A stretch of 64,000 bases of DNA from contig CAXXYH010000004.1 in assembly GCA_963677925.2 (NCBI GenBank), positions 2,176,001 through 2,240,000 on the forward strand. The letters run 5' to 3'. A model generated the notes under the pieces. It did no database searches and had not been told where the DNA came from. It saw only the letters and a program-made list of their open reading frames with translations. The stretch is from Spirochaetia bacterium (GTDB lineage: Bacteria > Spirochaetota > Spirochaetia > UBA9216). Shown in pieces: positions 19,799 to 27,217 of the stretch; within the stretch, counting starts at the first letter, position 1, and the number at the start of each line of letters is the position of its first letter. A program made the translations under genes and the position numbers.

Positions 19799-19810
19799 TG
19801 TTCTTTAACA
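19799..19810 (+). promoter_or_regulatory. boxA antitermination element in the rrn leader
   Basis: TGTTCTTTAACA versus consensus TGCTCTTTAACA; second copy CGTTCTTTAAAA at 21959-21970. Confidence 0.75.
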
Positions 19811-19937
19811 GTTAATTAGGGAAGGAAAGAGAGCCTGTGTTAATAGGTTTGATACTGAGCTACTTGAAAGATAGTAGATAGTGCGAACCGTCAATTGTTA
19901 GGATTAAAATTGCTAAGCTTTATGTTTAGCAAATTAT

Positions 19938-21475
<1,538 letters not shown>

Positions 21476-21749
21476 CAATGTGAAAGGAACGTGACTAAGT
21501 CTGAAAACTTCGGTTTTAAAACTTAGCTTAGAGTTTGTTTACAAGCTTTAACGCTTTAATAGTCATGGAAAAAACAGCCTGTTAGGCAAAAAACAACGCA
21601 GTGAAGTTCAGTTTACTGAACTTCCGAGATGCAGCTTGCTGCATCTCCGCTCTCTTTCTTCCTTTTTTATATTAAGTGAAGGTCAACTGGTTTTACTCGC
21701 TTGGAGATTTACCATGTAAAGCTCTGGAGGAAATCTTTGATTTTCTTTC

Positions 21750-21823
21750 GGGGGTATAGCTCAGCTGGCTAGAGCGGTGGCTTTGCAAGCCATAGGTCTG
21801 GGGTTCGAATCCCCATACCTCCA
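21750..21823 (+). tRNA. tRNA-Ala (TGC), CCA not encoded
   Basis: Acceptor stem GGGGGTA/TACCTCC with G3:U70, anticodon loop TTTGCAA, GGTTCGAATCC T-arm. Confidence 0.97.
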
Positions 21824-22059
21824 ATAGATATTTAACCGGTAACGGTTTGATATATTAAAGTCCTTTTTGTAGGGCTTTAAGACATAGTCTCCATAGAGAG
21901 ATTTAAGTTTGGCATTGTCAAACTTAAGAGAATACGGAATTAAGAATTCAGTATTCTCCGTTCTTTAAAATAGATAAAGACTGTTGAAAGATTACAGTTT
22001 TGAAAACTTATCCATATAACAGGGAGTGGATAAGTATAGGGAAGGGTTAAGAGGTAATA

Positions 22060-25048
<2,989 letters not shown>

Positions 25049-25191
25049 TATTTCCCCTTAATCAATTCCCGGAGAATTGAGCCAATAGGCTGCATGGACT
25101 AAGAAGTCCTGTGAATAGCAACCTATCGTGCCCAAACTCAATCCCTGTTCATTCTGCAATAGCAGGATGTAAGAATAATTTTGAATAATTA

Positions 25192-25287
<96 letters not shown>

Positions 25288-25301
<14 letters not shown>

Positions 25302-26270
25302 TTTTTTTTATTAATTTGGTTTTCATAACCAAATTAATAAAAATACAGTCTAAGATAACATAAGAAGTTTAGCTTGCTAAACTTCAGAGATTGCTCATGA
25401 TTAAAATATTGGGTTAAAAGAAGAACAGAGTCTGGAAGGAATACTGGAATAAAAAGCTGTCTGCAGCTATCTCCGGTCATATGCCAGGCTTTTTTTTATT
25501 AATTTCAAAAAGCAGTATTACAATTCTTAACTTTTAAAATAATCACTCCCGCTAACGCGTGAACTGATGTAACTTTTTTCACGTAAAATCTATCTAAACT
25601 AATAATTTGCGGGACTACGTTAGGCCCCATAGGCTCACCCTGAAAGTAGCACAGCAGGCTTAGCCTGATGTATAGTAGGTCATCGCCAGGCTTTTTTTTA
25701 TTAATTAAGTCTAAAGACTTAATTAATAAAATATTAGTATAAGATGTGGTAAGAAGTTCTGCAAAGCAGAACTTCAGAGAAAGTACTTAAGTAAAATTGA
25801 GTACTCAGAGATAATAGATAGTCTGGAAGGAATGCTGAGAATAAATAGTAGCAAAGCTACTTTCTCCGGTCATAACCCGCCAGGCTTTTTTTTATTAATT
25901 TGGTTTTGTAAACCAAATTAATAAAAATACAGTCTAAGATAACATAAGAAGTTTAGCTTGCTAAACTTCAGAGATAGCTCATGATTAAAATATTGGGCTT
26001 AAAAGAAGAACAGAGTCTGGAAGGAATACTGGAATTAAAAGCTGTCTGCAGCTATCTCCGGTCATATGCCAGGCTTTTTTTTATTAAATCGAATTTACAA
26101 ACTTTGTTATTCTTAACCCTTAAACCAAATACTCCTGGTAACGAGAGGACTGACATTCCTGATATTCACGAAATGATTTATATAAAACTTAAATGTTAGC
26201 GGGACTGTGTTTGGCTATGCATTTGTGCCCGAATAAGCAGCACAGCAGGCAACGCCTGATGTATAGTAGC
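25288..26270 (+). repeat. Array of five ~188-202 bp structured non-coding units delimited by copies of the 5S 3' end plus T8
   Basis: GGTCAT-n(1-5)-GCCAGGC-T8-ATTAA with GCCAGGC at 25295, 25483, 25685, 25879 and 26068; unit order A-B-A'-A-B'. Confidence 0.9.
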
Positions 26271-26410
26271 TGGCATGTTCAGTGTTAACGAACTGGAGAA
26301 GTTTCTATGGAACTTCCTTTTACCGTTTTTTTATTAGGTTAAATTCCTTTGTCAAAAAATAGATTATGTTGTAATTATCTAGCTAAATATAATATAGTGT
26401 TTTATAGCTT

Positions 26411-27217
26411 TTGAAGATGGAGAAAAAAATCATCGAAAATCCTGAATATTCCGACGCCAAGAAAGATTTAAAACTTACTAATCTTCAGAAAATGACTTAT
26501 ATTTTAAAGATCCTCAATCAGCCGCCTTATAAATTTACGGCGCAGGAAATCAGTAATCTTACAGGTATTAATCGTACTACCGTTTATAGAACATTGATGG
26601 TTCTTGTTGAAGAAGACTTTATTCTTCAGGATGAAGAAACACGGAAATTTGCAGTAGGTCCGATGTTATACCATATAGGACTTGGGTATCTGAATAACTT
26701 TCATTTCAAAGATGAAATTTACAAAACGCTTGAAAAATTAGCTGATATCACCTCGGAAGCCATTGGAATCGCTGTAAGAGAGGGCAACAAGATAATCTCC
26801 CTGTACGAGATAGATATTCAGCAGCCTTTAAAAATGAGTTATCCGCCAGGTTCATATTATCCGATGAACAGAGGCTGTTTCGGGAAACTTCTTATGGCCT
26901 ACCATGACCGAAATACTGTTCGAAAACTGCTTGAGCAAAGCAGTTTTGAAAAGTTATTTCCAAATACACTGACTGAAACAGATGAAATTCTTCATGAGTA
27001 TCAGAATATACGTAACAATGGATATGTGATTAGTGACGGAGAAGGATACAGTGTAATTGCTGCGGGAGTAGGTGTCCCGGTTTATAACACAAGAAATCAA
27101 GTTAAAGCCTGCCTTGCTGTTTCTTTTGTAAAGGATGACGATTTCGAAATTAAAAAAGATGAGCTGCTGAAATTATTACAGGAATATTCCAAAGAATTAA
27201 CAATTTATATGCCTTAA
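26411..27217 (+). CDS. IclR family transcriptional regulator
   Basis: N-terminal HTH (GINRTTVYRTL), GKLLMAY and GVGVPV effector-domain motifs; start may be ATG at 26417. Confidence 0.9.
   Translation: MKMEKKIIENPEYSDAKKDLKLTNLQKMTYILKILNQPPYKFTAQEISNLTGINRTTVYRTLMVLVEEDFILQDEETRKFAVGPMLYHIGLGYLNNFHFKDEIYKTLEKLADITSEAIGIAVREGNKIISLYEIDIQQPLKMSYPPGSYYPMNRGCFGKLLMAYHDRNTVRKLLEQSSFEKLFPNTLTETDEILHEYQNIRNNGYVISDGEGYSVIAAGVGVPVYNTRNQVKACLAVSFVKDDDFEIKKDELLKLLQEYSKELTIYMP

Follow-up and report, generated by a model that had tools for sequence, protein, structure and literature searches.

A modular array of 5S rRNA-anchored units behind the rRNA operons of a Spirochaetia bacterium, a candidate rrn 3' trailer

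Overview

The sequence analyzed, called the window, is a 64,000-nucleotide (nt) stretch of contig CAXXYH010000004.1 (assembly GCA_963677925.2) of a Spirochaetia bacterium, and positions are given in window numbering unless a contig is named. It holds a complete ribosomal RNA (rRNA) operon (rrn) with 16S rRNA (19938-21475), tRNA-Ala (21750-21823), 23S rRNA (22061-25049) and 5S rRNA (25193-25301, + strand; 97.5 bits with the Rfam model RF00001), and the 5S gene is trailed by five units in the order A, B, A', A, B', the first four of which are each closed by a copy of the 5S 3' end, here called the anchor. The two unit types are conserved in relatives, are linked exclusively to 5S genes and turn over between operons and species, and the helices of type A covary. 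The array is read, tentatively and at a probability somewhat short of even, as a modular 3' trailer of the rrn operon that would be transcribed by read-through and would consist of leaky terminator units reshuffled by recombination at the anchor.

Organization of the array

The anchor template comprises the last 18 nt of the 5S gene, T8 and ATTAAT (33 nt in all), and a repeat search found five copies of it, including that of the real 5S gene, starting at 25284, 25472, 25674, 25868 and 26057. The search reproduced exactly the positions of the core GCCAGGC that a first-pass annotation of this DNA had reported (25295, 25483, 25685, 25879 and 26068, with spacings of 188, 202, 194 and 189 nt), and sequence comparison bore out the unit order proposed there. 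The inter-anchor stretches measure 155-170 nt and belong to two homologous families. Regarding type A, units 1 (25302-25489, + strand, 188 nt) and 4 (25886-26074, + strand, 189 nt), which had been described as nearly identical, are separated by five substitutions and one indel (183 matches, 96.8% identity). Unit 3 (type A', 25692-25885, + strand, 194 nt) had been called diverged with its hairpins preserved; at about 70% identity it does keep the four quoted hairpin pairs, all of which fold in minimum-energy structures. The fourth of these hairpins is real, but the 8-base-pair (bp) long-range helix adjoining it had been overlooked.

Regarding type B, unit 2 (25490-25691, + strand, 202 nt) is a short form ending in the anchor copy at 25674-25706, and unit 5 (type B', 26075-26336, + strand, about 262 nt) is a long form that closes the array without a 5S anchor. 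The array had been taken to end at 26270; unit 5 in fact extends past two terminal hairpins, of which the second lies at 26298-26316, as far as a T7 run (26326-26332). Nor are the two types unrelated, as had been supposed: the anchor is common to both, and long forms of B also share with A a GAG/CTC-closed hairpin with CCG(G)TCAT behind it. The first-pass annotation had also not noted that A mimics the 5S 5' end, that B carries a motif antisense to 5S and that modules resembling A lie in the 16S-23S spacer.

The units are non-coding, as first proposed, and no open reading frame longer than 72 amino acids was found within the array. With the 5S model RF00001 (threshold 38 bits) the sole match over 25150-26450 was the 5S gene itself (25193-25301), and no unit was matched even at E-values up to 10. 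In a scan of Rfam 15 (4227 models) neither unit type was matched at gathering score; the best non-5S score was 24.3 bits, where the gathering score is 60, and all 25 non-5S rows were far under threshold. At seven array loci from relatives, searched with Rfam at E-values up to 0.01, only rRNAs were reported and no unit was matched. No tRNA was found among the units behind 5S. Tandem Repeats Finder reported no array, because the units are of two types.

Type A: structure and covariation

RNAalifold, applied to a MAFFT alignment of the A units, gave two helices: P2, a 10-bp hairpin, and P3, an 8-bp long-range helix between a GAGA-type stretch after P2 and a TCTC-type stretch just before CCGGTCAT. 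Among 15 model-aligned units 97.4% of 268 cells form standard pairs and double-sided changes occur at 17 of 18 pairs, which was matched by none of 500 shuffles, although fitting of the alignment to the model, and two units in it that are truncated by insertion sequences (IS), bias these figures towards structure. When the partners are slid by one to three columns, pairing falls to 31.7-57.1%. P3 exists in seven sequence versions, every one of them complementary. Type A is a real structured-RNA family whose structure is under selection. The first-pass annotation had claimed selection on structure for the units in general, which is supported for type A (covariation in 15 units) but not for type B, where no covariation was seen.

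The 5' hairpin of A, P1, forms by pairing of the U-run behind the previous anchor with a downstream A-run and has a variable apex. It is AU-rich; all 13 units that were folded form it with 15-19 pairs, despite the unrelated sequences of its copies, and a separate count likewise gave 15 of 15 units. P1 was judged sequence by sequence and not counted by columns, because its rows are offset by one column in both the MAFFT and the model alignments. The loop of P3 holds variable hairpins together with the invariant AGTCTGG, which equals the 5S 5' end plus the base or two preceding it; TCTCCGG is invariant as well. Judged by sequence, type A is thus a mimic of both 5S ends.

In unit 1, P1 spans 25305-25343, P2 25364-25385 and P3 25387-25394 with 25466-25473, AGTCTGG lies at 25429-25435 and the anchor copy at 25472-25504. 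The corresponding parts of unit 3 are P1 at 25696-25731, P2 at 25753-25775, P3 at 25777-25784 with 25859-25866, AGTCTGG at 25820-25826 and the anchor copy at 25868-25900. Those of unit 4 are P1 at 25889-25927, P2 at 25948-25969, P3 at 25971-25978 with 26051-26058, AGTCTGG at 26014-26020 and the anchor copy at 26057-26089. 

Unit ends

Each of the five copies of GCCAGGC in the window is directly followed by T8, and those at the other two operons by T7-T9. In type A the GUCUGG of the 5' mimic is predicted to pair with the CCAGGC of the anchor (6 bp) and the purine- or A-rich tract preceding it with the U-run, so that about 45 nt are enclosed. The mean probability of this terminal stem is at least 0.97 in seven of the 11 A units that could be scored by pattern, 0.42-0.52 in two and about 0 in two. 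In the last two, an insertion between GGTCAT and GCCAGGC builds a compact local hairpin directly before the U-run, with GCCAGGC as its 3' strand. As far as these folds predict, the anchor seems always to be the 3' strand of a stem beside U's, as at the end of 5S itself.

A conserved ATAAAATAT after P1 was considered by eye as a -10 promoter element and dropped, as the -35 positions and spacings are inconsistent.

Type B: 5S-derived parts and antisense motif

The 3' end of B resembles 5S (AGTAGGTCAT..GCCAGGC), B' and the B unit of the sister species (G002) contain a 10-nt block identical to 5S helix IV, and unit 5 holds the internal 5S-like GTTAGCGGGA. From such resemblances B looks 5S-derived. 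Long B forms end in a small three-way junction, the second hairpin of which has GAG/CTC as its closing pairs and CCGTCAT..GCCAGGC behind it; P3 and the tail of A are arranged alike. Copies of B at the three operons of the genome are 99.5-100% identical, whereas those of A are 62-97% identical.

About 50 nt into B stands CTCCCGCTAACGC (25546-25558 in unit 2), a perfect reverse complement of 5S positions 25271-25283. Perfect complements of 13-15 nt to positions 77-92 of the 5S of the respective genome were found in six of seven B units from four genomes, and the match extends in different directions between genomes, still tracking the 5S sequence. A 13-nt complement was reached by none of 300 shuffles and was present in none of four A units. 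The measure used was the longest perfect complement, in place of RNAduplex, with which long duplexes between units and 5S were no better than those of shuffles. Unit 5 carries the motif in degenerate form only (from 26132), and in one B variant of G008, another relative, an altered position would break the match to 5S. No B occurs in the genomes whose 5S helix IV differs (G010, G003, G061 and G155), and a search for the antisense motif in G010, G009, G001, G004 and G003 returned only 5S genes and apparently coding sites.

The 21 distinct B rows fall into three to four subtypes which did not yield a joint fold, and the consensus structure (MAFFT and RNAalifold) is a single 5-bp helix. It pairs the first part of the antisense motif with the internal 5S-like block. 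Since this helix is invariant it proves nothing, and since the motif can pair with the internal block it could serve the internal helix, pairing with 5S, or both. Covariance models of both types had been recommended as a check; those built for A and for B both match relatives, and the one consensus helix of B does not covary.

A-like modules in the 16S-23S spacer

Two A-like modules lie on the + strand in the 16S-23S spacer. They were found with two covariance models, R1, built from nine A units, and R2, which adds units from the order of a more distant genome (G061). The module upstream of tRNA-Ala (21535-21654) is a double hairpin, P2-like and collapsed P3, followed by TCTCCG (R1: 29.5 bits, E-value 2.1e-4; R2: 20.6 bits, E-value 0.0048 in 6.3 kb). 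In the module downstream of tRNA-Ala (21846-21965) the P3-like hairpin is followed at once by GTTCTTTAAAA (R1: 37.8 bits, E-value 3.4e-6; R2: 28.7 bits, E-value 1.6e-4). Both modules have all pairs of the two helices intact, a collapsed P3 loop and TCTCCG as 3' tail; weak matches to the A model also lie inside rrn operons of G002 and G010. The recurrence of the A core twice in the spacer ties the fold to rrn transcripts, and type A looks, by this comparison, like the spacer double hairpin after gaining a larger second loop and a 5S end.

The GTTCTTTAAAA at 21960-21970 resembles GTTCTTTAACAG in the operon leader (19800-19811), the common motif being GTTCTTTAA. Both look boxA-like, and the spacer module together with GTTCTTTAA may be a hairpin-plus-boxA antitermination signal.

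Linkage, distribution and turnover

The genome (5.04 Mb, four contigs, 99.6% complete) carries arrays behind three of three 5S genes, arranged 5S-B-A, 5S-A-B-A and, in the window, 5S-A-B-A'-A-B'; no 5S-type anchor was found elsewhere in the 5.04 Mb. R1 gave six strong matches in this genome, all within arrays, the other matches being weak and mostly in rrn spacers. At 2173205-2173313 of the same contig (C4), about 2.7 kb ahead of the window, a second rRNA operon ends on the same strand; two operons thus stand about 28 kb apart in tandem.

A comparison with other rrn copies and with relatives had been proposed, and besides the three arrays of the host it revealed homologues in at least eight other genomes from two Spirochaetia families, with A or B units behind 5S. 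Among the 11 species genomes of the host's order and family in GTDB, the sister species G002 has three 5S genes with one A unit behind each, one of them also with B'; A units also stand behind 5S in G010 and G009; B-type units occur in G005, G006 and G008, and in G007 the 3' end of an A unit stands in front of a B-type unit; in G003 neither A nor B was found. In a class sample of 151 genomes R1 matched five, four of the host family and one (G061) of another family, and R2 gave the same five; the B model matched four, all of the host family, with 17 matches in G008. Two of seven genomes of G061's order were matched, and both, G061 and G155, have one or two A units directly behind 5S. A pattern scan of 185,579 species genomes yielded 98 stretches; among the 80 listed, five loci belong to Spirochaetia/Spirochaetales, two of which (L110 and L140) were confirmed with R1, and the remaining 75, from other phyla, were taken as chance. 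A metagenome scan yielded two loci with units scoring as those of G061.

The anchors match the 5S of their own genome, with GGTCAT in the host, G002 and G008 and GGTCGT in G010, G061 and G155. Upstream of the orthologous IclR gene, the host operon has five units and that of G002 one; upstream of a LacI-like gene, the host has A-B-A and G002 has A-B'. The units are mosaics of one another's hairpins; the third unit of the second operon, for instance, combines a P1 of G002 type, the P2 of window unit 1 and the 3' half of its neighbor. The growth by recombination suggested earlier fits these mosaic units, the differing orders at the three operons and the differing unit numbers in the sister species, and the pattern is consistent with units being gained, lost and reshuffled as the anchor and the conserved linkers recombine homologously.

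Elements of the IS66 family (TnpB_IS66 and DDE_Tnp_IS66; ends starting GTAAGCGG) were seen at the arrays of loci L033 (G009), L011 (G010), L010 and L206 (G008), which may reflect a target preference or merely a tolerated landing zone. L206, on one contig (200-2700), holds at least nine B-type units of about 250 nt and several subtypes, and starts right behind an IS66 end, not behind a 5S gene. Locus L040 of G003 has an intact 5S gene and a diverged copy of the 5S 3' half, between which lies a ParE-toxin module with a small open reading frame upstream of it; the sequence past the diverged copy resembles the trailer of another G003 5S gene.

Downstream of the array lies a gene for an IclR-family regulator (26411-27217, + strand), recognized as an open reading frame with Pfam matches to IclR_C (2.6e-27) and HTH_IclR (2e-6); promoter-like sites precede it at 26349-26398.

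Regarding assembly, contigs produced by another assembler from run X1, possibly the source sample of the assembly, bridge 25677-26084 and 26058-26500. The depth of the B unit in X1 is 25.8 versus 6-8 in the unique flanks, about three to four times as high, which fits three genomic copies of B. Units 1 and 4 are collapsed in the X1 contigs, so that the duplicate A copy and the unit count rest on the assembly.

Other kinds of arrays were considered. A chromosomal integron is present on contig C3 at about 110000-129455, with intI at 382.9 bits (cut-off 265) and many repeats of about 133 nt. An integron cassette array was rejected for the window, as intI is on C3 and the arrays are on C4, and the repeats share only 15-19-nt matches (E-value 0.03 or higher). 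A clustered regularly interspaced short palindromic repeat array was rejected in view of the length of the inter-anchor stretches, their two homologous families and the 96.8% identity of units 1 and 4. Regarding an integrative element at the 3' end of an RNA gene, no recombinase gene was found there, the next gene being the IclR regulator.

Proposed mechanism and alternative explanations

According to the preferred reading, the array would be a 3' external transcribed spacer of the operon, and RNA polymerase would read through the U8 that abuts the mature 5S 3' end and would transcribe one or more self-folding units. Each unit would end in the 3' strand of 5S helix I (CCAGGC) and a U-tract; in type A, CCAGGC would pair with the internal AGUCUGG copy and its preceding purine- or A-rich tract, so that the unit end would imitate the closed 5S end. 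Such an end might act as a leaky intrinsic terminator and as a 5S-type 3'-end or processing signal. P1 (15-19 bp, AU-rich) would take up the preceding U-tract in read-through RNA and is a plausible entry site for RNase III, freeing 5S from its trailer. RNase III and RNase Y are encoded in the genome, and RNase M5 (TIGR00334) and RNase E/G (TIGR00757) gave no match in this 99.6%-complete genome, so the 5S ends must be made otherwise here. The outcome would be staged termination before the IclR-family gene, insulating it from rrn read-through, and a set of structured RNAs of about 190-260 nt produced in step with rRNA. The units would have been assembled from parts of the operon (5S ends, the 5S 3' half and the spacer double hairpin) and, with the shared anchor and the conserved linkers as sites of homologous recombination, would multiply, vanish and turn mosaic.

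Several points weigh against this reading. Transcription of the array beyond 25309, termination, processing and any function in trans are predictions from the DNA. Of three sequencing runs listed, one contains the stretch, in the form of contigs, and no listed run containing it is recorded as RNA. A scan for compact consensus terminators placed none of its five hits on the + strand of the array, and a promoter scan gave six sites versus 4.7 expected from shuffles, none consistently placed in the units. P3 and the terminal stem stand in pseudoknot topology, and minimum-energy folds, in which pseudoknots cannot be represented, pick the terminal stem and omit P3. In G008 at least nine successive B-type anchors are followed by TAAATCATTTTTT and lack a U-run, so that conservation of the anchor extends to places where it can only make a poor terminator. 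Unit number ranges from one to five at orthologous operons and IS66-family elements lie in or beside the arrays of G008, G009 and G010, so that individual units are dispensable. The lack of covariation in the consensus helix of B and the model-fitted alignment of A, with its two truncated rows, belong here as well.

A pure battery of fail-safe terminators, in which only the stem and U8 are selected, antiterminated polymerases are stopped before the regulator gene and the RNAs have no role, is unlikely. It would account for T8 at all five window copies (four after units, one after 5S), for the same-strand gene behind the array, and for the strong terminal stem in seven of 11 scored units and the compact hairpin rebuilt in the two insertion units; tandem terminators stand at the ends of E. 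coli rrn operons. Such a battery has no need of P1, P2 and P3, yet these are kept by compensatory changes across two families, nor of invariant single-stranded motifs. One unit suffices at the orthologous operon of the sister species, and the tandem terminator option raised in the first-pass annotation is weakened in its pure form by the long G008 array, where anchors persist without an adjacent U-run.

Quite unlikely is the more ambitious proposal that A and B constitute a new class of 5S-derived, rrn-encoded RNAs acting in 5S and ribosome biogenesis. This would apply to a lineage in which neither of the two known endonucleases of 5S maturation, RNase E/G and RNase M5, was found. A would be a 'mini-5S' whose helix I mimic competes for or recruits the machinery of 5S ends; through its antisense motif B would hold or cover helix IV and loop D of the nascent 5S, in cis or in trans, until processing; and the 5S output of each operon would be adjusted through how many units it has.

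A related explanation, judged improbable, is that the units yield trans-acting small RNAs, with B pairing to positions 77-92 (helix IV and loop D) of 5S or pre-5S, or mimicking 5S for a 5S protein, and so coupling 5S maturation or ribosome assembly to rrn output. The perfect 5S complement in six of seven B units, reached by none of the 300 shuffles and absent from the four A units, points in this direction, as do its tracking of 5S despite extending differently per genome and the near-identity of B across operons where A varies. A natural antisense RNA that destabilizes 5S is reported for chloroplasts (PMC3017836). Against trans action stand the sense-like GTTAGCGGGA inside the same B unit, which can pair with the motif and forms the only consensus helix, the degenerate motif of window B' and the G008 variant that would mismatch 5S.

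That the units are decaying by-products, that is, degenerate duplicates of 5S and spacer from unequal crossing-over which are kept alike by gene conversion and have no function, is decidedly improbable. Neutral decay would not keep three helices by compensatory changes in two families, nor would it hold AGTCTGG and TCTCCGG invariant. It would agree with the 5S pieces in B (GTTAGCGGGA and AGTAGGTCAT...GCCAGGC), with the combination of both 5S ends and a spacer-like core in A, with anchors that track the local 5S, and with the unstable copy number and tolerated IS66 insertions.

Miniature mobile cassettes, non-autonomous and site-specific for the 5S 3' end as an attachment-like site, with a recombinase encoded elsewhere and the target duplicated at each insertion as by islands at tRNA genes, are very improbable. 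The layout of gene, unit and gene 3' end equals the product of tandem integration, P1 is a palindrome whose outer parts are conserved and whose inner parts vary, a ParE module stands between 5S and a diverged 5S 3' half in G003, and the genome encodes an integron integrase. No recombinase, however, was found in or beside any array, the integron is on another contig and its repeats share at most chance matches of 15-19 nt, and the units occur nowhere but behind 5S, with the same two families persisting vertically across genera.

An assembly artefact of collapsed or chimeric rrn flanks, for which the 96.8% identity of units 1 and 4 and their collapse in the X1 contigs might speak, has a practically negligible probability, as the three arrays have unique flanks, the contigs of the other assembler bridge B-A'-A and A-B'-downstream gene, the depth of B fits three copies, and homologous arrays exist in at least eight other genomes.

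Significance and comparison with known systems

If transcribed, the units would represent two new structured-RNA families hard-wired to rRNA synthesis and, as far as we know, the first case of a bacterial rRNA gene lending its own ends to a row of other RNAs as end signals. No description of 5S-anchored repeats was found in the literature as represented by listings and the beginnings of abstracts. The arrays provide a handle on 5S end formation in bacteria without RNase E/G and RNase M5, and they show parts of an operon (5S ends and spacer hairpins) recombining into new RNA modules. In annotation they risk being mistaken for partial 5S genes or assembly errors.

Compared with 5S itself (RF00001), A has the AGTCTGG 5' end and the 3' end, and B has the 3' end and the 10-nt helix IV block; by eye, the GATGTAT/AGTAGG pair of B resembles helix V and loop E. 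Helices II and III are missing from the units, none of which scores as 5S.

Genomic islands integrate in tandem at the 3' ends of tRNA and tmRNA genes, and integron cassettes form arrays. The likeness lies in the 3' end of an RNA gene being copied after each unit and in growth at one fixed site, whereas the present units are gene-less, of about 190 nt, without an adjacent integrase and unrelated to the integron repeats. The 3' external transcribed spacer of leuZ acts as a sponge of small RNAs, and a trailer behind a stable RNA could likewise yield RNAs tracking stable-RNA synthesis; the present units differ in being repeated and in mimicking 5S, and are known from sequence alone.

Distal elements of rrn operons include a second 5S gene and the T1-T2 terminators. 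These are similar in placing extra structured RNAs and more than one terminator behind 5S in the same transcription unit. The units described here, in contrast, belong to neither the tRNAs nor the 5S rRNAs, since RF00001 matches the true 5S gene alone and no tRNA was found there, and their terminator stem would be a long-range mimic of 5S helix I in place of a compact hairpin.

Downstream of E. coli tyrT lie tandem repeats that each contain the 3' end of tRNA-Tyr (rtT RNA), and the analogy to them drawn in the first-pass annotation is apt in layout: direct repeats of about 180-200 nt stand behind a stable-RNA gene, each ending in the 3' end of that gene, with a presumed origin by unequal recombination and with co-transcription with the gene, which would apply here as well. 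The array differs in its 5S anchor, in its two unit families of variable order, in the covarying helices of A and the copy of the 5' end of the gene, and in being conserved across two bacterial families at every rrn operon. In layout the array can be classed with the tyrT-type 3'-end repeats and the rrn distal elements, as a variant of both; what appears to be new is the 5S anchor, the two putative RNA families, the mimicry of 5S at both of its ends and the motif antisense to 5S.

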